In this document: positions 8,470-28,162 of the stretch, piece after piece | Numbering within the stretch: position 1 is the first letter of the stretch | How the letters are laid out: the number at the start of each line of letters is the position of its first letter | From: an uncultured Candidatus Saccharibacteria bacterium | Lineage (GTDB): Bacteria > Patescibacteriota > Minisyncoccia > Phycocordibacterales > UBA1550 | Assembly (NCBI GenBank): GCA_964457625.1 | Contig: CAYWES010000001.1 | Span: 17,725-81,724 of the forward strand | Length of the DNA stretch: 64,000 nucleotides | Reading direction: 5' to 3' | Made by a program: the position numbers and the translations under genes | The notes under the pieces: model-generated | Database searches by the model: none | Seen by the model: only the letters and a program-made list of their open reading frames with translations | Told to the model about the DNA's origin: nothing

Positions 8470-9648
8470 ATGAAGAATATTTATCTTGATTATGCGGCGG
8501 CAACGCCCGTTGACCCCAAGGTACAAAAAATCGTCTCAAAGGTTTTTCGCGATACATATGGGAATCCCAGCGCCCTTCACAGAAAAGGGAAAGAGGCGCA
8601 TGCCCTTTTTGAGAGTGCGCGTCAAACCATCGCAGATGTCTTGAGCGCTCATGCTGATGAAATCGTGATGACGAGCGGGGCGACAGAAGCAAATGCTCTC
8701 GCGCTCCTTGGGACAGTGCACGCGGCACGTGCTCAGGGGGTAAAGGTTCCCCATGTCATCGTCTCGTCCATCGAGCATCCTTCGGTATTGCGTACCGCGG
8801 AGATACTCGCGCATGAAGGTATCGCGCGCGTTGATTACCTTTCGGTGGACGAGAAGGGAATTGTCGACGCTCGTCTCCTCCGCGAACTCATGGGAGATGA
8901 TACGGTACTGGTGTCGGTGATGTATGTGAACAATGAAGTAGGTACGGTGGAGCCTCTTCGCGATATTGCAAAAGAAATCCGCCACTTCAAGACAAAACGA
9001 AACTCTTTCTTCCCGTATTTCCATACTGATGCGGCGCAGGCGCAAAATAGTTATTCGCTCACGGTCCCTGAGTTGGGAGTGGACTTGATGACCCTTTCCT
9101 CAGGAAAGGTATACGGTCCGCGTGGGGTAGGGGCGTTGTTTGTACGGCGAGGCATCACCCTCAAGCCTCTGTTTCAAGGGGGGACACAAGAGCGCGGTCT
9201 TCGCCCCGGGACAGAAAATGTCGCCCTTGCGTGTGGCTTTGCGCACGCGCTCGCGGTGGCACAGGAGAAGAGAGACAAAGAGACTATTCGTTTACGTGCG
9301 TTACAGGAGTATGTGCTCCACGGACTTCAAGGCGCCGTCCCTGATTGTGTCGTGAACGGTGACCCTCTCCACATGGCACCTCATATCGTAAACGTATCCA
9401 TTCCCGGAGTTGAAAGCGAAGTCCTCGTACTGTATTTGGATGCGCAAGGAATATCCGTATCAGGAAAAAGCGCGTGTGAAAGTACTACGAGTGAAGTCTC
9501 TCATGTTATACTTGCACTAGGGGGGAAGGAAAAAGATGCTTACGGAGGGACGCTTCGGTTTTCTTTGGGGAGAAATACAACCCAAAGAGATATTCGTGTC
9601 GCTCTCCGAGCACTCAAAGACGCACTCGCTATTCTCCGAAGCGCGTAA
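8470..9648 (+). CDS. cysteine desulfurase (IscS/NifS family aminotransferase class V)
   Basis: PLP-enzyme motifs: TSGATEANALAL, SSGKVYGPRGVGALFV, SVSGKSACES. Confidence 0.9.
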   Translation: MKNIYLDYAAATPVDPKVQKIVSKVFRDTYGNPSALHRKGKEAHALFESARQTIADVLSAHADEIVMTSGATEANALALLGTVHAARAQGVKVPHVIVSSIEHPSVLRTAEILAHEGIARVDYLSVDEKGIVDARLLRELMGDDTVLVSVMYVNNEVGTVEPLRDIAKEIRHFKTKRNSFFPYFHTDAAQAQNSYSLTVPELGVDLMTLSSGKVYGPRGVGALFVRRGITLKPLFQGGTQERGLRPGTENVALACGFAHALAVAQEKRDKETIRLRALQEYVLHGLQGAVPDCVVNGDPLHMAPHIVNVSIPGVESEVLVLYLDAQGISVSGKSACESTTSEVSHVILALGGKEKDAYGGTLRFSLGRNTTQRDIRVALRALKDALAILRSA

Positions 9649-14916: not shown

Positions 14917-15000
14917 GCGTAGGTGGCGGAGTGGTCAATCGCAATTGACTGTAAATCAATCGCCCTTTGGGCTTCGAAGGTTCGAATCCTTCCCTACGCA
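14917..15000 (+). tRNA. tRNA-Tyr(GTA)
   Basis: GCGTAGG...anticodon arm ATTGA-CTGTAAA-TCAAT, long variable arm, T-arm GAAGG-TTCGAAT-CCTTC, acceptor CCTACGC-A. Confidence 0.9.
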
Positions 15001-15013
15001 CAATTCAAAATAG

Positions 15014-15040
15014 CGCCCATCAGGGCGCATATTTTGTTTG
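15014..15040 (+). terminator. terminator hairpin after tRNA-Tyr
   Basis: GCGCCC-ATCA-GGGCGC followed by ATATTTTGTTTG. Confidence 0.6.
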
Positions 15041-15283
15041 TGCGTAGGGAGGAAGCCGTTGGTACGGCTTCCGTAAGGATTCGAACGGCGGAATGTGAAA
15101 TTTTTAGCAAAAAATTTCCATGAGCCGGTGCCTAGACCAAAAGTGAGTGGCGACGAACTTTTGAGTCGAAGGAGAATCCTTCCCCCAACAGACACCACTT
15201 TCCCCAAAACACCCTCCTACCCACGCTTTTCGCTTGAGCTCGCCTCGTTGCTTTTTTTTTGAGGATATAGTAGGATAGGCGAC

Positions 15284-15442
15284 ATGTCACAAGATCAACT
15301 TATCAAACTCGTCTGCAAGGACTGCAAGCGCGTGAACTATTGGTCGCGCAAGAACAAGAAGCTCGTTGAGCGCAAAATCGAGCTCGACAAGTTCTGCAAG
15401 TGGTGCAAGAAGCACACGACGCACAAGGAAGGAAAGAAATAA
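15284..15442 (+). CDS. rpmG: 50S ribosomal protein L33 (52 aa; below the ORF-track cutoff)
   Basis: Own translation gives MSQDQLIKLVCKDCKRVNYWSRKNKKLVERKIELDKFCKWCKKHTTHKEGKK, with the CxxC...CxxC zinc ribbon typical of L33; AGGATAGG upstream. Confidence 0.85.
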   Translation: MSQDQLIKLVCKDCKRVNYWSRKNKKLVERKIELDKFCKWCKKHTTHKEGKK

Positions 15443-15446
15443 TAAA

Positions 15447-15471
15447 AATACCCCCAAGTGGGGGTATTTTG
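15447..15471 (+). terminator. rho-independent terminator after rpmG
   Basis: TACCCCC-AAGT-GGGGGTA followed by TTTT. Confidence 0.8.
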
Positions 15472-15484
15472 CTATTATATATCC

Positions 15485-16618
15485 ATGAATCACGACCTTC
15501 GAAAAGGACTGCGCACTTGGGTGGAAATAGACACCCGGGCAATCGCCAAAAACTATACCGCTTTTAGGAATCATATTCCTCCATCTGTGCGCCTGTGTGG
15601 TGTGGTGAAATCAAACGCGTATGGGCATGGTCTCGTGCAATTCGCGCAGGAGCTTGAAAAGCTCGGCGCTGATATGCTCGCGGTTGATTCGGTGGTGGAG
15701 GCGCTCACCCTTCGCCGTGAAGGGGTACGCACTCCGATTCTTGTCCTCGGATATACGCTTCCCGATATGTATGAAAAGGTTCTTGAAAAAAACATTCATC
15801 TCACGATTTCCAGCAAGGAGAGTTTGGACGAACTTTTCTCGAGAGGGTACCATACGCGCATCCCCATTCATATTAAAGTTGATACCGGCATGCATCGGCA
15901 AGGGTTTCTGGAGGACGAGAGGGAAGTGCTCATGGATTTTCTAGAAAAGAAAGGTTTTTTGATATCGGGGCTCTATACGCATTTTGCAAAATCAAAAGAT
16001 TTCAATGATAGGACCTTTACGGAGTCCAGCATTGAAGTATTTTTGCGCTGGAGAGAGGATTTTAAAAAGAGGGGAAAGGTCGTGATTGCGCACGCGGACG
16101 CCACGGGAGGATTGCTTGTACATCCTGAAGCGCACTTTGATATGGTGCGTATCGGTATCGGTCTCTATGGTATGCCCGCTGCGGATACGTTGGCTACTTT
16201 TCACGAAGAAACCATGCCTCTTCACCCCGTGCTTACCTGGAAGACAATTGTCTCGGAGATAAAAGAAATCCCCGAGGGGTCTTCAATAGGATACGACGGC
16301 ACACATGTGACGAAGCGCCCCACAAAGATGATGGTATGCCCGATAGGGTATTGGCATGGGTATCCTCGCGCGCTTTCAAACAACGCTGAAGTGCTTGTGC
16401 GCGGCAAGCGTGCACCTGTCCTCGGGCGAGTCTCAATGGATATGATAGTCGTAGATGGTACGGATATTCCCGGTGTGCGTGTGAGCGATGAAGTGGTTTT
16501 GGTCGGCGCGCAGGAAGGGGAGGAAATATCGGCAACAGAGCTTGCGCATCGTGCGGGGACGAGCGAGTACGAGCTCCTCACGCGCTTGAATCCTCTGATG
16601 AGAAAGATCTATCGGTAA
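15485..16618 (+). CDS. alr: alanine racemase
   Basis: PLP-lysine motif VVKSNAYGHG; fold-type III racemase length. The ORF-track start at 15458 lies inside the rpmG terminator, so the ATG at 15485 is preferred. Confidence 0.85.
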   Translation: MNHDLRKGLRTWVEIDTRAIAKNYTAFRNHIPPSVRLCGVVKSNAYGHGLVQFAQELEKLGADMLAVDSVVEALTLRREGVRTPILVLGYTLPDMYEKVLEKNIHLTISSKESLDELFSRGYHTRIPIHIKVDTGMHRQGFLEDEREVLMDFLEKKGFLISGLYTHFAKSKDFNDRTFTESSIEVFLRWREDFKKRGKVVIAHADATGGLLVHPEAHFDMVRIGIGLYGMPAADTLATFHEETMPLHPVLTWKTIVSEIKEIPEGSSIGYDGTHVTKRPTKMMVCPIGYWHGYPRALSNNAEVLVRGKRAPVLGRVSMDMIVVDGTDIPGVRVSDEVVLVGAQEGEEISATELAHRAGTSEYELLTRLNPLMRKIYR

Positions 16619-16680
16619 TTCCTTTTCGGACTATTTTTTGGTATAGTGGTCCAGTGTATTAAGACATTTTGTTCTCATTA

Positions 16681-16754
16681 GGGCCTATAGTTCAGTGGTA
16701 GAATAGCGGTCTCCAAAACCGTTGACCGAGGTTCGAGTCCTCGTGGGCCCGCCA
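16681..16754 (+). tRNA. tRNA-Trp(CCA)
   Basis: GGGCCTATAGTTCAGTGGTAGAATAGCGGTCTCCAAAACCGTTGACCGAGGTTCGAGTCCTCGTGGGCCCGCCA. Confidence 0.9.
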
Positions 16755-16765
16755 AGAAATATGAA

Positions 16766-16795
16766 ATAAAAAAGCCCCTTGCATTCGCAAGGGGC
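16766..16795 (-). terminator. terminator for the minus-strand gene ending at 16814
   Basis: GCCCCTTGC-ATTC-GCAAGGGGC with a T-run on the minus strand. Confidence 0.7.
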
Positions 16796-16813
16796 GATTG
16801 GTTGAAGGCATCA

Positions 16814-17323
16814 TCAGACGATTCTCCCCAGGGAATTCGGGTTGGAAAAGTCATCGATGATGAGTACTTTGCCGTTGTTTTCGCCAGACAGAAGCATTTC
16901 TATCGGTGACCGCACGCGGAATACCTTCCCGGGCGGTATCCAGAATCCTTGGCGATCAACGCCACTGGCACAATCCCACCTCAAGCATCCAACGAGGGCT
17001 CGTTCGTCCTCGTCGTACTGTACCGCGTAATCGGGAATGTTGAAGGATTCCTGCGGAACATAAAGCGTGACCGGATCGCCGATGTGGATTGAGTTTGCGC
17101 ACCACGCGCACGTAATCGACATCTTGGCGACACAATCGAGGCAATAGTCGGGTGCTCCGTTTTCGGAGAGAGGCATAGACATCGTAAAGCTTTCGCCATG
17201 CGATGTTATGTTACCCGTCTTCTTTGTCCAGTGTCCGCAGATATTTGCCTTAAATGTCTTGCGAAACGGATACGAGACGGCGAGCCATACGACCCACCAG
17301 TCATGAGACAGTCTTTCATTCAT
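16814..17323 (-). CDS. Cys-rich hypothetical protein (putative Zn-binding)
   Basis: 169 aa; CLDC...CAWC...C...C pattern; no recognisable family. Confidence 0.55.
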   Translation of the reverse strand: MNERLSHDWWVVWLAVSYPFRKTFKANICGHWTKKTGNITSHGESFTMSMPLSENGAPDYCLDCVAKMSITCAWCANSIHIGDPVTLYVPQESFNIPDYAVQYDEDERALVGCLRWDCASGVDRQGFWIPPGKVFRVRSPIEMLLSGENNGKVLIIDDFSNPNSLGRIV

Positions 17324-17525
17324 AAAGTACTCCTTTCAAGTTGAGGTTTTGAAGTTTATCCGGGTCGAATACTACGTGATATTTCGCAATAAGTAAAGGG
17401 TTTTAAAGAAAGGCTTTTCAAGTCTGCGTGCCTAAGCAAAACTTCAAAATGGCAACAAAAAATGTTATTATGTCTTAGTGAAATTGAATTAAGCGACCTA
17501 ACCCCTCGGGATATTTTCTGAGGGT

Positions 17526-18296
17526 ATGGTCAAAAATCTCGCTACAACAAATATGAATACCCTAGGCACACCTCAGCTTCATGAGAAGCCGAAGCACAAG
17601 CTCTCACCATCAACAATAGAGAAGCTTCAATACTATGTTTACACACTTTCCGACCCTCGGACTAATAAAGTTTTCTACGTTGGCAAAGGAAAAGGAAATC
17701 GCATAAATCACCACTTGCTTGGTGCACTTGAAGAGAAAACCAAAGAAACGGAGAAAATAAAAACTATCAGAGATATCCAAAAAGCGGGGCTTGAAGTAAG
17801 CCTCGATATTATTCGTCATGGCTTAACCGAAAAAGAAGCTTTTGAAGTAGAGAGTTCGATTATTGATGTCCTCGATATTAAATCTCTTACAAATCTTGTA
17901 TCCGGGCATCATTCATACTTAAGAGGGAAAAAGACACTTCGGGTTATTGAAATTGAATACCAAGCAAAGCCCGCAAACTTTGACGAACCAGTCGTCCTTA
18001 TCCGTATCAATCAGGAATTCAGGCACGATATGACTGTCGAAGAACTGTATACGGCGACACGAAAAGACTGGAAAGTCGGACAGCGAGTACATGACATCAG
18101 TATTGCTTGCGCCGTATATGCTGGAATTATTCGCGAAGTATATAGTGTCAAAGAATGGGTACCATCTCCCGGAGTTCCCGGACGGCATATGTTCAACGGA
18201 AAAATCGCAGAAGACAGAATTCGTAACAAGTACATCAACAAGTCCGTTGCTCATATCTGGAAGCAAGGAAGCCAAAATCCGATTAAGTATGTTTAA
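17526..18296 (+). CDS. GIY-YIG nuclease-domain protein with an uncharacterised ~150-aa C-terminal domain
   Basis: YYVYTLSDPRTNKVFYVGKGKGNRINHHL matches the GIY-x10-YIG-x-R-x-H core; the C-terminal part (..RKDWKVGQRVHD..ACAVYAGIIREVYSV..) has no recognisable motif. Confidence 0.6.
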   Translation: MVKNLATTNMNTLGTPQLHEKPKHKLSPSTIEKLQYYVYTLSDPRTNKVFYVGKGKGNRINHHLLGALEEKTKETEKIKTIRDIQKAGLEVSLDIIRHGLTEKEAFEVESSIIDVLDIKSLTNLVSGHHSYLRGKKTLRVIEIEYQAKPANFDEPVVLIRINQEFRHDMTVEELYTATRKDWKVGQRVHDISIACAVYAGIIREVYSVKEWVPSPGVPGRHMFNGKIAEDRIRNKYINKSVAHIWKQGSQNPIKYV

Positions 18297-18341
18297 TCGA
18301 GTTTTGCATAACAGTTATTAGATTTAATATTTTTAGACTAT

Positions 18342-18962
18342 ATGTCATATAAACAAAACCTAAAACGATATTTACTCGTTCCACTCGCATACATAGCGAC
18401 AGGTATTATTCTTTTGCTACTTCTTGTCACGCTCAGTGTCTCCTTGGGATACTGGTGGGCTTTGCTTATTGTAAGCGCGCTCATGATTATCAGCACCGCC
18501 ATATTTACCCGAAAGACCACAAAAAAAGAAGCTGCGGAAAAGTTTGGGCACAGAATGACCGTCTTCTTGATTTGTGTTTGGGGTATAAGCGGTGTTGCTA
18601 TCTTTGGAGCATGGTTAATAGGTAGCAATGATTCTTCAAAAACCGAAAAGAGTACTGAGTTAAAATGCGATGAGGGTTCATACGCATATAGACTTACCCA
18701 AGACTTGATGAAGACATACCTTAAATCACCCTCCACCGCAAAATTTTCTCGTTTTCCGACATACAGCAAAGGCAATATTGTTGATTGGGGTAGTAGTTGC
18801 AGATACGCAATCCGCTCATATGTTGATTCTCAAAACTCATTTGGAGCGATGCTTCGAACGGAATATGGAGCTCATCTTGATATTGGTAGGGATGGAACGG
18901 TATCAATTCTTAGGTTGGAGATAAATAGTGAAGAGATCTTCAACAAGCTTTCCACTGATTAG
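18342..18962 (+). CDS. membrane protein (3 N-terminal TM helices plus an extracytoplasmic domain), unknown function
   Basis: 206 aa; hydrophobic N-terminus; C-terminal part has no known motif. Confidence 0.55.
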   Translation: MSYKQNLKRYLLVPLAYIATGIILLLLLVTLSVSLGYWWALLIVSALMIISTAIFTRKTTKKEAAEKFGHRMTVFLICVWGISGVAIFGAWLIGSNDSSKTEKSTELKCDEGSYAYRLTQDLMKTYLKSPSTAKFSRFPTYSKGNIVDWGSSCRYAIRSYVDSQNSFGAMLRTEYGAHLDIGRDGTVSILRLEINSEEIFNKLSTD

Positions 18963-19048
18963 ACGGGGCACACGGCAAAAGACCACGACATAAAAAATGC
19001 CGTGGTCTTTTTCTTAGTCATCCAAACAAATCTCATTGGAGGTAATTC

Positions 19049-19078
19049 TTGTGTGCTACTAAACCCACATGGTATAAT
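19049..19078 (+). promoter_or_regulatory. sigma-70-type promoter with extended -10 upstream of the holin-family gene
   Basis: TTGTGT, 18-nt spacer, TGG-TATAAT at 19070-19078. Confidence 0.55.
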
Positions 19079-19115
19079 ACATGCGTTATAAGCCGTTTTT
19101 TAAAATATGTAATTT

Positions 19116-19457
19116 ATGCAAATAATCATTACTTGGTTGACTGCCGCGGTGGCTATCATGATCTCGGCATACATTTTGCCGGGTGTTGTGCTAGAAGGAT
19201 TGATTGCAGCATTGGTCCTCGCTGTTGTCCTCGGGGCGATCAACGCGTTTATTAAACCTCTCGTTATTGTTTTGACGCTTCCTATCAACGTTCTCACGTT
19301 GGGGCTCTTTACGCTTGTGATTGATGCTGCGCTCATTATGCTCGCAGCAATGATTGTACCGGGATTTGGCGTGACAAGTTTCTGGTGGGCGCTTCTTTTT
19401 GCTGTCGTCCTCTCGCTTGTCAATGCTGTCTTCGCACACTTTGGGGGCAAGAAATAA
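19116..19457 (+). CDS. phage holin family protein (4-TM, Phage_holin_4_2/YvlD-like)
   Basis: MQIIITWLTAAVAIMISAYILPGVVLEGLIAALVLAVVLGAINAFIKPLVIVLTLPINVLTLGLFTLVIDAALIMLAAMIVPGFGV is a characteristic family signature. Confidence 0.75.
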   Translation: MQIIITWLTAAVAIMISAYILPGVVLEGLIAALVLAVVLGAINAFIKPLVIVLTLPINVLTLGLFTLVIDAALIMLAAMIVPGFGVTSFWWALLFAVVLSLVNAVFAHFGGKK

Positions 19458-19503
19458 GTATACATCTCCATACTCTCAAAGCCATCCTTGAAATACGGCT
19501 CAC

Positions 19504-19560
19504 TCAAAACACTCTCACACTGAGGGTGTTTTGAGTTTTGAAATCTTTGTTTTTTCTGCT
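19504..19560 (+). terminator. terminator after the holin-family gene
   Basis: CTCAAAACAC...GTGTTTTGAG long hairpin followed by TTTTGAAATCTTTGTTTTTT. Confidence 0.7.
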
Positions 19561-19597
19561 ATGGTGCCCACAGATACACCACTACGGAGGAGTTCTT

Positions 19598-20107
19598 ATG
19601 ATGAGCAAGGCAACAGAAGATGCGGAGCGTACGATTGAGAACGCACGCAAGAGACTGAAAGACGGCACATGGCCTCAGGTTATGGCAGTCTTTTTTTACC
19701 CAAACCCGAAAGCCCCACGCGTGCAGGATGAAGAGTTCTTACGACTTCAATCTTTCTACGAAAATGCTTCGCTTCCCAATATGGCGCTGTTCATTGAGAT
19801 TGTGCAGTTTATGGAAAAAGAATGCGGGGTAACCATGTCGTTTAACTTCAGTTTGTGCAACCGAAGAAACCAAGGAGACCTCGGAGATTCTGAAATGACT
19901 TCAGGACATGCAACACTCTATTTTGGTACCCGTGATTTACTCGTGGGTACGCGCGGAGGAGTGGAAGGTGCCATGGTATGGTTTAGAAATATCTCTGAAG
20001 GAATTTCCATGATTGCACCGGAGCTTCTCCAGATTTTGGATAAAATCTTTGGTGAGGCGGTGGGCATTGTACGACGTCCTGAAAAGGATAAGTCTCGTGT
20101 ACACTAA
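19598..20107 (+). CDS. hypothetical protein
   Basis: GGAGG RBS before the ATG at 19598; 169 aa; no recognisable motif. Confidence 0.5.
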   Translation: MMSKATEDAERTIENARKRLKDGTWPQVMAVFFYPNPKAPRVQDEEFLRLQSFYENASLPNMALFIEIVQFMEKECGVTMSFNFSLCNRRNQGDLGDSEMTSGHATLYFGTRDLLVGTRGGVEGAMVWFRNISEGISMIAPELLQILDKIFGEAVGIVRRPEKDKSRVH

Positions 20108-20134
20108 AAATATCACCCCTTTGGGCGATATACT

Positions 20135-20170
20135 AAAAGCCCTAACACTATTCGTGTTAGGGCTTTTTTT
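20135..20170. terminator. bidirectional terminator between the hypothetical gene (+) and miaA (-)
   Basis: AAAAGCCCTAACAC-TATTC-GTGTTAGGGCTTTT, with TTTTTTT downstream. Confidence 0.85.
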
Positions 20171-20197
20171 GTGGCAGGTGTGTATGAGACGGAACGT

Positions 20198-21100
20198 TTA
20201 CACCAAAAACTTCTTGACCTCCTTAAAAACTTCTCTCGTTTCTTCTTTTTTAAACCACCTGATTGTCGTATCTCGCTTAAACCACACCATTTGTCGGCGG
20301 GAGAATTGGATAATTTCTTTGAGGAGTTTTTCCTCGGCTTCTTTTTGGGGAAGCGTGTCGGTGAGAACGTCTGCCATCATACGGTATTCGAGTCCGAGCG
20401 AGCGCATACGCTTCCACGAGAGCCCTTCTGCGTGAAGTCTGCGTCCTTCGGCGAGCATGCCTTTTTTCATGCGCGCGGTGAGGCGCTTTGCGATGTTGTC
20501 TGTGAGGATATCTTTGCCGGGGTTAATACCGATTTGAAGGACACGATAGGGAGGTGGTGTGTGGGTGAGGGTGGGGACGGCACCGAGTTTCGTGGCGATT
20601 TCAATCGCGCGAACGAGGCGCCGAGGGTTGTCTTTATCTATTTCTTTTGCGCGACGCGAATCAAGTTTTTTGAGTATTATGAAAAGCTCTTTCGCAGATT
20701 TTTTTTCAAGCTTAGCACGGAGCGATGCGTCAGGAGGTACCTCAGGGATAGTGATTCCAGAGATGACGGCTTGAATATAAAAGCCGGTACCTCCGCAGAG
20801 TATGGGCACCTTGCCACGATGCACGATATCACGAATGGCACGCTCAGCAAGGCGTTTGTACTGCATGACGCTAAATGGTCGTTTCGGGCTTGCGACATCG
20901 AGCAGGTAGTGGGGGATTCCCTTCATTTCACGTTTGGTGATTTTCCCGCTCCCAATATCTAGTCCTCTGTATATTTGGCGCGAATCAGCAGAAATAACCT
21001 CGCCATTGAATCGGCGCGCGATTTCAACAGCGAGGTCGCTTTTCCCCGAGGCGGTGGGTCCCACCACGGCAATAAGGTGTATCTTGGTGTCTCTGGGCAT
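20198..21100 (-). CDS. miaA: tRNA dimethylallyltransferase
   Basis: P-loop VVGPTASGKSDLA; DSRQIYRGLDIGSGK; CGGTGFY. Confidence 0.9.
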   Translation of the reverse strand: MPRDTKIHLIAVVGPTASGKSDLAVEIARRFNGEVISADSRQIYRGLDIGSGKITKREMKGIPHYLLDVASPKRPFSVMQYKRLAERAIRDIVHRGKVPILCGGTGFYIQAVISGITIPEVPPDASLRAKLEKKSAKELFIILKKLDSRRAKEIDKDNPRRLVRAIEIATKLGAVPTLTHTPPPYRVLQIGINPGKDILTDNIAKRLTARMKKGMLAEGRRLHAEGLSWKRMRSLGLEYRMMADVLTDTLPQKEAEEKLLKEIIQFSRRQMVWFKRDTTIRWFKKEETREVFKEVKKFLV

Positions 21101-21186
21101 CTTTGGTATACTCGCACTATATCAATAATTAATAATTTTGTAATTTCATGACAATGAATACCTGTAATGAGTGTGGATGTGAAGAA

Positions 21187-21759
21187 ATGTTCGTCTCCGC
21201 TGAGATTGGGCAAGAAGTTCCTAATATTACCGTAGAAGCCTTTCACAATGAAGAGATAAAGAAAATCAGCCTCGCTGACTATCGTGGGAAGTGGGCGATT
21301 CTTTTCTTCTATCCCGCAGACTTCACCTTTGTATGTCCTACGGAGCTTGAAGAAATGGCGGACAACTACGAGGAGTTTCAAAAATTGAACGCGGAAGTGC
21401 TCGGTGTATCCGGAGATACGGTATTCTCACACAAGGCATGGCATGATACATCAGAAGCCATCAAGAAGGTGAAGTTTCCTCTCCTCGCGGATGTACGTCG
21501 TGAGCTCATGAGCGCGTTTGGTACGTACATTCCTGATGAAGGTATGTCGCTTCGTGGAACATTTGTGATTGACCCTGATGGCATTCTCCGTATCGTTGAA
21601 ATCAACGATAACAACATCGGTCGTAGCGCAAAGGAGCTTCTTCGCAAACTCAAGGCAGCACAGTTTGTGCGCGAGCATGGCGGTAATGTGTGTCCCGCAA
21701 GCTGGGAACCGGGCGATGATACATTGAAGCCGGGTCTTGATTTGGTAGGGAAGATCTAA
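21187..21759 (+). CDS. 2-Cys peroxiredoxin (AhpC/Prx1 type)
   Basis: FTFVCPTE peroxidatic Cys motif. Start uncertain: the ORF-track start at 21148 adds MTMNTCNECGCEE; 21187 gives a 190-aa canonical length. Confidence 0.8.
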   Translation: MFVSAEIGQEVPNITVEAFHNEEIKKISLADYRGKWAILFFYPADFTFVCPTELEEMADNYEEFQKLNAEVLGVSGDTVFSHKAWHDTSEAIKKVKFPLLADVRRELMSAFGTYIPDEGMSLRGTFVIDPDGILRIVEINDNNIGRSAKELLRKLKAAQFVREHGGNVCPASWEPGDDTLKPGLDLVGKI

Positions 21760-21782
21760 GCGGGTAGAGGGTAGGGTTTTTC

Positions 21783-21826
21783 AAAGAAAGCAGGCGGGGG
21801 CGTACGCCCCCGCCTGCTTTCTTTTT
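21783..21826. terminator. bidirectional terminator (20-bp perfect stem)
   Basis: AAAGAAAGCAGGCGGGGGCG-TA-CGCCCCCGCCTGCTTTCTTT. Confidence 0.85.
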
Positions 21827-21855
21827 ACCCCCCATTTTGTTACCATGGCAACATT

Positions 21856-21936
21856 GCCGGAGTGGCGGAATGGTAGACGCGCGCGACTCAAAATCGCGTC
21901 TCGTAAGGGGTGTGGGTTCAAGTCCCACCTCCGGCA
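21856..21936 (+). tRNA. tRNA-Leu(CAA)
   Basis: GCCGGAGTGGCGGAATGGTAGACGCGCGCGACTCAAAATCGCG...GTGGGTTCAAGTCCCACCTCCGGCA; long variable arm. Confidence 0.85.
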
Positions 21937-21967
21937 CAATGAAGACTCGCTCCTCAATGCGCCAGTC

Positions 21968-22711
21968 ATGAAGAAAAACAAACCAACAAAGATAACCGAT
22001 TACTTCGGTGCAAACCTCGCAGAACTTTTGGCGGGTAAAATCAAGTCGGTATACCCGTCGTTTGACGGTGTGGGATTCATAAAAGAGGTGGGCACACGCG
22101 TCCGTGGCAAAACATACACGGAGCGAATTGAGATTATTGCTCAATCGCTGAAAGATTTTTTACCTGCATCCTACCCGAAAGCACTCGCCATTCTTCTCAA
22201 AATCCTTGGACCGGAAAATCCCCACGAGACAGGCATGTTTAAACATTTCTATTGGCTTATGCCGGTCGGTAAGTTTATTGAGAAGTACGGGTTGGAACAC
22301 TTTGATATTTCAATGCAGGCAATCGGTGAAGTAACCAAGCGTAATACCGGTGAGTATGCCGTGCGACCATATATTCGTGAGAATCCCAAGAAAGCGCTCA
22401 CATATCTAAAAAAATGGGCGAAGTCAGATAACTTTCATCTGCGCCGTCTCGCGAGCGAGGGTCTCCGCCCGAAACTTCCGTGGGCGCCGAAACTTGATAC
22501 ATTCATAGATAATCCTAAGCCCGTATTTGAAATCCTGGAAATCCTAAAAGCGGACGATATTATGTTTGTTAAAAAATCAGTCGCCAATCACCTGACCGAC
22601 TATCTCAAAGTTAATCCCGAACCGACGAGGCGACTGCTCAAGGAATGGGGGAAGTTCGACAACTCGCACACACAATGGATTATCAAACACGCCACCAGAA
22701 AAATTTCTTGA
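21968..22711 (+). CDS. DNA alkylation repair enzyme (AlkD-like HEAT-repeat family)
   Basis: The ORF-track start overlaps the tRNA; ATG at 21968 (MKKNKPTK). Family-typical YAVRPYIR...W..S..FHLRRLASEGLRP. Confidence 0.7.
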   Translation: MKKNKPTKITDYFGANLAELLAGKIKSVYPSFDGVGFIKEVGTRVRGKTYTERIEIIAQSLKDFLPASYPKALAILLKILGPENPHETGMFKHFYWLMPVGKFIEKYGLEHFDISMQAIGEVTKRNTGEYAVRPYIRENPKKALTYLKKWAKSDNFHLRRLASEGLRPKLPWAPKLDTFIDNPKPVFEILEILKADDIMFVKKSVANHLTDYLKVNPEPTRRLLKEWGKFDNSHTQWIIKHATRKIS

Positions 22712-27732: not shown

Positions 27733-27766
27733 AAGAGTTCGCTCTCCTTCTTTGTGGAGGAATCGT

Positions 27767-28162
27767 ATGACTATTATCATCACTCTTTTTTATCTCTCAC
27801 TCCTGGTAGTGGTAGCAATGATTGTAAAGAAGTTTCTTGAGATTCGAACACTCAAGCTTTCTCTGGTTGAGGGGATTGAACAAGAGATTTCTCGCAAAGC
27901 ACACCATTTTATACAAATATTTTGGTACGATTGGTGTTTGGTCCTTATTTCTCGTACTCATGCCGGTGTCGTGCGGGGTTGGTATGTTCTTGAACACGCA
28001 GTGCTCGGACTTATAATTCGTCTTTCTGAGCGCTTGAAACGTCGTCACCACAAGCTCTATGATATGGTGAAAGGGAAGGGAGTTTTAAAAAATAAGGGTT
28101 CTGTTTCCACATTTCTTAAAGAGGTTTCCACCTACAAAGAGGAAGAAAAATCCTCAAAATAA
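27767..28162 (+). CDS. hypothetical membrane protein
   Basis: GGAGG RBS 7 nt before the ATG at 27767; N-terminal TM; 131 aa. Confidence 0.5.
   Translation: MTIIITLFYLSLLVVVAMIVKKFLEIRTLKLSLVEGIEQEISRKAHHFIQIFWYDWCLVLISRTHAGVVRGWYVLEHAVLGLIIRLSERLKRRHHKLYDMVKGKGVLKNKGSVSTFLKEVSTYKEEEKSSK

Follow-up and report, generated by a model that had tools for sequence, protein, structure and literature searches.

In the Patescibacteria (Paceibacterota) genome studied here, is the block of genes that separates tRNA-Trp from miaA a single defence or addiction island acquired by lateral transfer, as an earlier note had proposed, or a site at which unrelated genes lie side by side? The number of defence systems recognised in Patescibacteria is small (PMC12366544). 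In the window, that is, the whole stretch of 64,000 nucleotides analysed, the block is quite probably a variable gap holding five functionally unconnected genes (g1 to g5), among them a solitary PD-T4-3/CMoRE-type nuclease, g2, and not one mobile island. The direct basis of this reading is family membership, motif conservation, base composition, and the distribution and context of homologues, while enzymatic specificity, lateral origin and co-transcription of g2 with g3 are what we infer.

Organization of the interval

The left boundary of the variable interval is tRNA-Trp (anticodon CCA; 16681-16754, plus strand), detected by ARAGORN and matched by Rfam RF00005 with 68.9 bits. The right boundary is miaA (20198-21100, minus strand), which encodes tRNA dimethylallyltransferase (PF01715, 2.9e-62). 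The window is dense in tRNA genes, with 8 in 64 kb. Between these boundaries lie g1 (16814-17323, minus strand, 169 aa with 7 Cys), g2 (17526-18296, 256 aa), g3 (18342-18962, 206 aa), g4 (19116-19457, 113 aa) and g5 (19598-20107, 169 aa), the last four on the plus strand; all five ORFs, as well as tRNA-Trp and miaA, were found where they had been placed previously. The divergent gap between g1 and g2 (17324-17525), which had been described as AT-rich and about 200 nt long, measures 202 nt with a GC of 0.366. It contains a promoter-like site for g2 at 17443-17471 (TTCAAA-17-TGnTATTAT); no Rfam family was matched in the gap, and its folding z-score is only -1.8.

It had also been claimed that each gene possesses its own terminator, and this holds for all but one boundary. 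On the minus strand, a G+C-rich hairpin followed by a T-run at 16774-16795 (9 pairs, 7 of them G-C, in the terminator scan) is the terminator of g1 and, in the opposite reading direction, of tRNA-Trp. Two plus-strand hairpins with T-runs follow g3 (18977-19011; inverted repeat I9 with 15-nt arms, 93% complementary) and g4 (19502-19536; I4 with 16-nt arms, 94% complementary), and a perfect hairpin between A- and T-runs at 20135-20167 (I5, 14-nt arms, 100% complementary) is a bidirectional terminator common to the convergent g5 and miaA. By contrast, neither the terminator scan nor the inverted-repeat scan found a hairpin in the 45-nt spacer between g2 and g3. For this reason g2 and g3 may be co-transcribed, and the hairpin at 18977-19011 is likely the terminator of their joint transcript.

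Base composition and the interval in relatives

The whole block has a GC of 0.437 compared with 0.468 for the window, and the stretch 17324-19115 falls to 0.398. The genes g2 (GC 0.412, z -2.3) and g3 (GC 0.409, z -2.5) rank second and third lowest among the 59 ORFs of the window, and the segment from 17 to 19 kb is its lowest-GC 2-kb bin (0.420), by a narrow margin over other bins at 0.438-0.440. The block had been called AT-rich; this applies to g2, g3 and the spacers, but not to g1, which is GC-rich (0.520, z +1.8; GC3 0.618, z +3.1), nor to g4 (0.458) and g5 (0.460), which are average with z of about -0.5. Gene z-scores running from +1.8 in g1 to -2.5 in g3 do not describe a uniform foreign composition.

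For the comparison with relatives, 80 miaA loci were retrieved, the best miaA match being 60% identical. By tblastn, g1, g2, g3 and g5 were missing from every one of these loci, which bears out the view that the content is accessory and not core. About 20 relatives have the same anchors, and in these the interval is between 8 bp and 8.5 kb long; the near-empty cases (8 bp in L040, 26 bp in L049) come from genomes whose miaA is only about 50% identical. The content of the interval was scanned in eight relatives and consists of aaRS, mur, ABC-transporter, aldehyde-dehydrogenase and similar genes with the GC of their surroundings. The tRNA-Trp/miaA site is a junction prone to rearrangement and no hotspot of defence genes, and would correspond to a gap of variable gene order between the conserved anchors tRNA-Trp-rpmG-alr and miaA-tRNA-Leu.

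The marks of an integrated element were also sought. Pfam revealed no integrase or recombinase domain among the five ORFs, in agreement with the earlier note, and recombinases were seen only beside homologues in other genomes. The direct repeat of the tRNA-Trp 3' end that had been suggested near 20.1 kb was not found: the 25-nt 3' end occurs once in the window with up to 3 mismatches allowed, and the best partial repeat, 13 nt at 85%, lies inside g5. The proposed PADLOC check succeeded for g2 but returned no other match in the block, so that two or more adjacent systems, as in a defence island, were not seen; among ten flanking ORFs, PADLOC matched only a lone cysteine desulfurase (SspA/DndA-like) without partners.

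g2, a nuclease of the PD-T4-3/CMoRE family

The expectation of a defence gene in the block was borne out by g2, through both a PADLOC profile and solved structures. By homology, g2 is an ordinary full-length member of the PD-T4-3/CMoRE family of single-gene anti-phage nucleases: residues 25-255 match positions 5-252 of 256 in the PADLOC profile PDLC04031 PD-T4-3 (1.1e-47), and residues 29-255 match residues 14-258 of 262 in the CMoRE structures PDB 9U75/9U7U across both domains (3.7e-31), with further matches to PF22945 (6e-19) and phrog_5356 (1.8e-55). The family was first found in E. coli ECOR68 (PMC12923530). CMoRE itself has been characterised as a single-gene type IV endonuclease that cuts phage DNA containing 5hmC or glucosyl-hmC (Liu et al. 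2026, PDB 9U75/9U7U; PMC12923530). The family is single-component and modification-dependent, with 274 of 274 surveyed systems consisting of a single gene (PMC12923530), and modification dependence is retained in PD-T4-3Capno, from another phylum, at 48% identity (PMC12366544).

The N-terminal GIY-YIG domain of g2 spans about residues 29-129 and is followed by a predicted modification-sensing domain (about residues 130-255), with residues 127-255 aligning in sequence with residues 114-258 of 9U75/9U7U. The true start is probably M10 (17553), since the closest homologues begin with MNTL. All of the GIYxY-YIG motif is preserved, as Y37-V-Y39 and F50-Y51-V-G-K-G at the 12-residue spacing of 9U75, and Y37, Y39 and Y51 reproduce the spacing of Y17, Y19 and Y31 in E. 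coli CMoRE. Among 27 homologues of g2, the invariant residues are Y37-V-Y39, F50-Y51-x-G-K-G, R59, E109, N123 and Y145, and in the alignment the segments GKGKGNR (with R59) and EVE (with E109) match the 9U75 sequence exactly. In the GIY-YIG fold, R59 and E109 would be the catalytic arginine and glutamate. Residue Y145 aligns with CMoRE Y127, whose backbone contacts 5hmC (PMC12923530), and would be its equivalent.

Thus, g2 resembles the characterised enzymes in being one polypeptide with two domains over its full length, in the GIYxY-YIG spacing, in the conserved GKGxGNR and E109, in standing alone without a methylase partner, and in having homologues in defence islands and mobile elements. 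It also departs from them. The alpha2-alpha3 lid of g2, GALEEKTKETEK versus GEVAAADDDDLLSNK, is 3 residues shorter than that of E. coli CMoRE. In the latter, as in "most" members, the lid autoinhibits the enzyme via four consecutive acidic residues, DDDD, whereas the lid of g2 (EEKTKETEK) is zwitterionic; its four Glu are interspersed with Lys instead of forming an acidic run, and this form is maintained throughout its subfamily. Moreover, g2 belongs to a Paceibacterota bacterium, whereas the characterised enzymes come from E. coli and Capnocytophaga; it is distant from the solved structures, the match at 3.7e-31 being the sole measured link, and its substrate is a prediction by homology.

By analogy with the E. 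coli and Capnocytophaga enzymes, the C-terminal domain of g2 would bind hypermodified bases of phage DNA entering the cell (5-hydroxymethyl- or glucosyl-hydroxymethyl-cytosine in the case of the characterised enzymes), and the N-terminal GIYxY-YIG domain would then cleave the modified DNA. Unmodified host DNA would be spared, so that g2 should need no methylase or immunity partner.

Neighbourhoods and origin of g2

The g2 subfamily has 1269 database matches; among the few with a named source are Nomurabacteria, Komeilibacteria and a Bacteroidetes MAG. Next to the closest homologues (73-78% identity) lie large serine recombinases and DNA methylases, as well as an AAA_15/21 ATPase and an OLD-TOPRIM plus UvrD pair, and the neighbourhood includes Gabija-like genes. 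The two homologue loci that were measured (L174 and L175/L176), one of which was recovered from the sample that also yielded the window organism, have a GC of 0.36-0.40 and share no neighbour with the window; none of 80 metagenomic g2-homologue loci carries any homologue of g1, g3, g4 or g5. The low GC of g2, together with the matching low GC of the serine-recombinase elements and defence islands that carry its closest homologues, makes a lateral origin of g2 probable; g3 perhaps came alongside it. The claim of lateral acquisition can thus be kept for g2, and perhaps for g3, but not for the block as a unit. The source was probably a lower-GC integrative element whose recombinase has since been lost, and g2 would have arrived together with the AT-rich g3 or beside it.

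The other four genes

In the earlier note, g4 was described as a holin-family protein and taken as a membrane-disrupting sign of defence. Its family assignment stands: g4 matches the whole model of PF04020 ("Phage_holin_4_2", 2.4e-30), described by Pfam as the mycobacterial 4 TMS phage holin of superfamily IV, and like that family it has four TM helices within 113 aa, being hydrophobic nearly throughout. The phage or lysis context does not: profile searches found no endolysin or phage genes near g4, PADLOC did not match it, and only 4 of 50,697 phage records match PF04020, all partially. Furthermore, homologues 54-58% identical lie directly 3' of miaA in two Paceibacterota (L060 and L068), and PF04020 proteins of this kind tend to lie near miaA. 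On these grounds g4 does not look like the holin of a lysis cassette; it probably belongs to the resident membrane proteins of the cell and not to the effectors of lysis or defence. An extended -10 element (TGgTATAAT, 19070-19078), read by eye, precedes the gene.

From their homologues, g1 and g5 appear as Patescibacteria-restricted orphans, found in varied and unrelated housekeeping neighbourhoods. The invariant residues of g1 (C29, H31, C61, C64, C72, C75, C113 and C118; seven Cys and one His) would be enough for two putative 4-ligand metal sites; its predicted model is confident and corresponds to no known fold, and g1 is not linked to g2. The product of g5 is an alpha/beta protein whose ATG start was confirmed by homologue alignment, and the gene stands alone elsewhere.

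The description of g3 as a 3-TM protein with an external domain agrees with its hydrophobic stretches (aa 9-58 and 70-95), which would accommodate three TM helices, and with a predicted C-terminal extracytoplasmic domain of about 100 aa. This unnamed domain occurs in 2460 representative proteins, also after zinc ribbons, and about 10 of the 150 matches listed are full-length. Residues 65-194 match phrog_13160 (9.6e-12). The best full-length homologue, 39% identical by tblastn, has no GIY-YIG gene as a neighbour.

Competing explanations

Like tRNA-associated genomic or defence islands, the block adjoins a tRNA, holds a defence gene, deviates in composition at g2 and g3, where the lowest-GC 2-kb bin falls, and has content (g1, g2, g3 and g5) absent from the interval in 80 relatives. 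These features would suit a single defence or addiction island that came by lateral transfer into a tRNA target and later lost its integrase, and in which the g2 nuclease and the g4 "holin" cooperate. Such an island would, however, be expected to carry an integrase, an att direct repeat and a second defence system, all of which the block lacks, and its composition is heterogeneous, with z of +1.8 in g1, about -2.4 in g2 and g3 and about -0.5 in g4 and g5. The five genes are never found together elsewhere; four separate terminators divide them into independent units; the interval of the eight relatives scanned carries housekeeping genes; g4 homologues neighbour miaA in two other Paceibacterota and hardly occur in phages; and the CMoRE family needs a single component (PMC12923530). 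As the 8 tRNA genes are scattered over the 64 kb, tRNA adjacency is weak evidence. With compositions that differ and distributions that are disjoint, this explanation is largely refuted and very unlikely to be correct. A smaller unit, a two-gene operon in which the g2 nuclease works with g3 as a membrane-anchored partner, such as a superinfection-exclusion or externally exposed sensor protein, is unlikely. The common strand, the hairpin-free spacer, the single terminator 3' of g3, the nearly equal GC and the resemblance of the g3 C-terminal domain to phage families of unknown function all fit it, but unrelated neighbours are often co-transcribed, the surveyed CMoRE systems are without exception single-gene (PMC12923530), and g3 is not a conserved partner of g2, being absent from the 80 metagenomic g2-homologue loci and from L174-L176.

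It is highly improbable that g2 is a selfish, free-standing homing endonuclease and not a host defence gene. GIY-YIG is a classic homing-endonuclease fold, g2 matches phrog_314 "homing endonuclease" (3.3e-07), and homologues 36-45% identical in jumbo phages of Serratia, Klebsiella and Pseudomonas are labelled "homing nuclease" or "endonuclease"; these annotations are, however, untested labels, whereas the match of g2 to an experimentally validated CMoRE is full-length and extends over the sensing domain, which is not a nuclease. There is no intron, intein or split-gene context, and the closest homologues lie beside methylases, Gabija-like genes and recombinases, not in or next to a target gene. 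It is also quite unlikely that the block is what decay has left of the core of a Patescibacteria defence locus, in which g1, g3 and/or g5 would be uncharacterised anti-phage genes and the short-lid g2 subfamily would read a non-hmC modification. For these orphans, a comparison is offered by LdgA and DdgA, which are reportedly Patescibacteria-only defences obtained by functional selection. If true, this would be a pointer to hypermodified genomes in the phages of Patescibacteria, of which very little is known.

Significance

With five unconnected genes in a variable gap as the preferred reading, the locus is an example of a Paceibacterota genome carrying a PD-T4-3/CMoRE-type modification-dependent nuclease on its own; the family is already known, and the practical value is modest. 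A false lead is removed, placing the "holin" g4, together with g1, g3 and g5, outside any defence module. The altered lid of the g2 subfamily could inform the evolution of autoinhibition and specificity in CMoRE, and the existence of this subfamily suggests that these bacteria are prey to phages whose DNA is hypermodified.

The nuclease gene and its family

On sequence grounds, g2 (17526-18296, plus strand), a gene within the block between tRNA-Trp and miaA (16755-20197), is assigned to an already characterised single-gene defence system, PD-T4-3/CMoRE. Its product is a full-length match to the PADLOC PD-T4-3 model (1.1e-47) and also matches PF22945 and phrog_5356, and its residues 29-255 align with residues 14-258 of 262 in the CMoRE structures 9U75/9U7U across both domains (3.7e-31). 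PD-T4-3/CMoRE is a single-component type IV restriction endonuclease, active as a tetramer, in which the C-terminal domain serves as a sensor of 5hmC/5ghmC, the N-terminal GIY-YIG domain carries the diagnostic GIYxY-YIG motif (Y17, Y19 and Y31), and autoinhibition is exerted by an acidic alpha2-alpha3 lid (Liu et al., PMC12923530). A Capnocytophaga homologue, 48% identical, is likewise modification-dependent and shows some plasticity, as phage Mu DNA is cut too (Rodriguez-Rodriguez et al., PMC12366544).

In the protein encoded by g2, Y37, Y39 and Y51 form the GIYxY-YIG motif, spaced exactly as in CMoRE, GKGKGNR and E109 are kept, and Y145 aligns with the 5hmC-contacting Y127 of CMoRE; all of these positions are invariant across the 27 homologues aligned. 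The sole departure from CMoRE concerns the alpha2-alpha3 lid, which is three residues shorter and zwitterionic (EEKTKETEK) where that of CMoRE is acidic (DDDD). This loop, GALEEKTKETEK, lies at 17700-17740 of the window (amino acids 66-79), and its form is kept in 27/27 aligned homologues. The family is large, with 1269 matches, the named ones belonging to Nomurabacteria, Komeilibacteria and one Bacteroidetes MAG, and the subfamily with the shortened lid includes Patescibacteria members.

Genomic context of the nuclease

The closest homologues of g2 sit in genuine defence islands. They adjoin large serine recombinases and DNA methylases (locus L094); the CMoRE-like nuclease at L174:1775-9198 is grouped with a large serine recombinase, an N6/N4 DNA methylase and a Gabija-like pair made up of an OLD-TOPRIM ATPase and a UvrD helicase, and at L175/L176:1-8285 a serine recombinase occurs together with an AAA_15/21 ATPase and several methylases. 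L176 and the organism of the window come from a shared metagenome sample, SRR16797977. The GC content of L174 and L175/L176 (0.36-0.40) resembles that of g2, and tRNA genes abut several homologues. Taken together, the recombinase and methylase neighbours, the low GC and the tRNA-abutting homologues support the view that g2 was acquired laterally, from an integrative element of lower GC.

The composition of the block was described in the earlier note as AT-rich, and this holds only in part. Against the 59 long ORFs of the window (mean GC 0.472, sd 0.026), only one ORF has a lower GC than g2 (0.412) and g3 (0.409), and the segment 17324-19115 has a GC of 0.398; however, g1 is GC-rich (0.520), with the GC3 maximum of the window (0.618), and g4 and g5, at about 0.46, are unremarkable. 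The block as a whole has a GC of 0.437, compared with 0.468 for the window. The lowest-GC ORF of the window, 27752-28162 (plus strand; GC 0.401, z -2.8), is located outside the block.

The proposal that all five genes form one laterally acquired island beside the tRNA found no support. Homologues of g1, g3, g4, g5, miaA and alr were absent from all 80 metagenomic g2-homologue loci, where identity to g2 reached 78%, and the window holds no recombinase. A second copy of the tRNA-Trp 3' end was not found in a search allowing up to 3 mismatches, and among all direct and inverted repeats listed over 16500-20400 none rose above chance. Reading a nuclease beside a tRNA as defence is borne out for g2 but not for the rest of the block, and the idea of an addiction module is likewise unsupported. 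Nor did a wider defence island emerge from PADLOC applied to the block and ten flanking ORFs, which matched g2 and one lone cysteine desulfurase. The latter (Aminotran_5; 8470-9648, plus strand) scored 7e-116 against the SspA/DndA models; no Ssp/Dnd partner genes lie nearby, and it most probably serves a housekeeping role as an IscS/NifS-type enzyme that defence-finding tools could easily flag in error.

The tRNA-Trp/miaA interval in relatives

The earlier annotation of the tRNA, the five ORFs and miaA proved correct on ARAGORN, Rfam, ORF and Pfam checks. By ARAGORN and Rfam, tRNA-Trp(CCA) occupies 16681-16754, and miaA (PF01715, 2.9e-62) lies at 20198-21100 on the minus strand. Both flanks are housekeeping DNA, with rpmG and alr upstream and a peroxiredoxin, tRNA-Leu and a DNA-alkylation-repair-like gene downstream. 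The longest ORF of this last gene, 21845-22711 (plus strand), overlaps the same-strand tRNA-Leu(CAA) at 21856-21937, so its true start codon must be 3' of 21937.

The window comes from a genome of the Patescibacteria (Paceibacterota/Parcubacteria). DNA identical to it was found in two Logan assemblies only, and species representatives offer no miaA closer than 60% identity (80 miaA loci retrieved), so that no strain-level empty site is available for an insertion test. The order tRNA-Leu(CAA)-miaA-[interval]-tRNA-Trp-rpmG-(alr)-tRNA-Tyr, spanning 14917-21937 in the window, recurs in about 20 of the 80 loci (among them L004, L009, L015, L017, L026, L040, L047, L049, L055, L058, L060, L066-L068, L070 and L071), and many Paceibacterota keep this framework. 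The interval itself can be as short as 8 bp (L040) or 26 bp (L049) and as long as 6-8.5 kb (L004, L070, L005). In the scanned relatives its cargo consists of housekeeping genes of local GC, including a class-Ib aminoacyl-tRNA synthetase, chorismate-mutase/methyltransferase, murB, murA-like and Mur ligase genes, Vut_1, an aldehyde dehydrogenase, a TPP enzyme, a HIT protein, a MacAB-type ABC transporter and MgsA. The only gene of the block to recur there is g4, at L060 and L068 (54-58% identity), directly 3' of miaA. A conserved defence hotspot was therefore rejected on account of the housekeeping cargo in the relatives scanned; the interval is a recurrent breakpoint at which gene order is unconserved at this divergence.

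The other genes of the block

Each gene had been credited with its own terminator, which applies to four of the five: hairpins followed by T-runs occur at 16774-16795, 18977-19011, 19502-19536 and 20135-20167, but the 45-nt spacer between g2 and g3 has none, and these two genes may form a single transcript. The 202-nt gap between the divergent g1 and g2 matched no known RNA in Rfam, and its predicted folding is not unusual.

The Cys-rich product of g1 (16814-17323, minus strand) has 37 homologues, none of them named, with invariant C29, H31, C61, C64, C72, C75, C113 and C118; their genes lie beside a ComF-like gene and pilM, in the smpB/infC gap, or beside ychF. Its AF2 model is confident (pLDDT 94.3) and has no matching fold in PDB or the viral BFVD. 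For g5 (169 aa; ATG at 19598, set by homologue alignment), 14 homologues were found in unrelated contexts, the named ones from Kaiserbacteria and Paceibacterota, and the only structures that its model (pLDDT 85) resembles are generic helical designs, which is uninformative.

The product of g3 (18342-18962, plus strand) is predicted to cross the membrane with three TM helices and carries an extracytoplasmic domain of about 80-100 residues at its C-terminus (window 18640-18940, amino acids 100-200). This domain occurs in about 2460 representative proteins, often behind one TM helix or behind zinc ribbons on the cytoplasmic side, and also in several phage proteins; few full-length homologues were among the matches listed. 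It has no Pfam model, and Pfam fusions in the representative search were uninformative. No relatives were found in viral_contigs, phage hypotheticals gave only weak matches to the C-terminal domain, and the best homologue has no g2-like neighbour. As for g4 (19116-19457, plus strand), a full-length PF04020 protein, the suggested holin role lacks support, as no lysis context surrounds it and the family is almost absent from phage genomes.

In essence, g2 is a further member of a known defence family in an under-studied phylum, and the remaining interest resides in three orphan proteins without known fold or function and in the changed lid loop of the g2 subfamily, which is rich in Patescibacteria.
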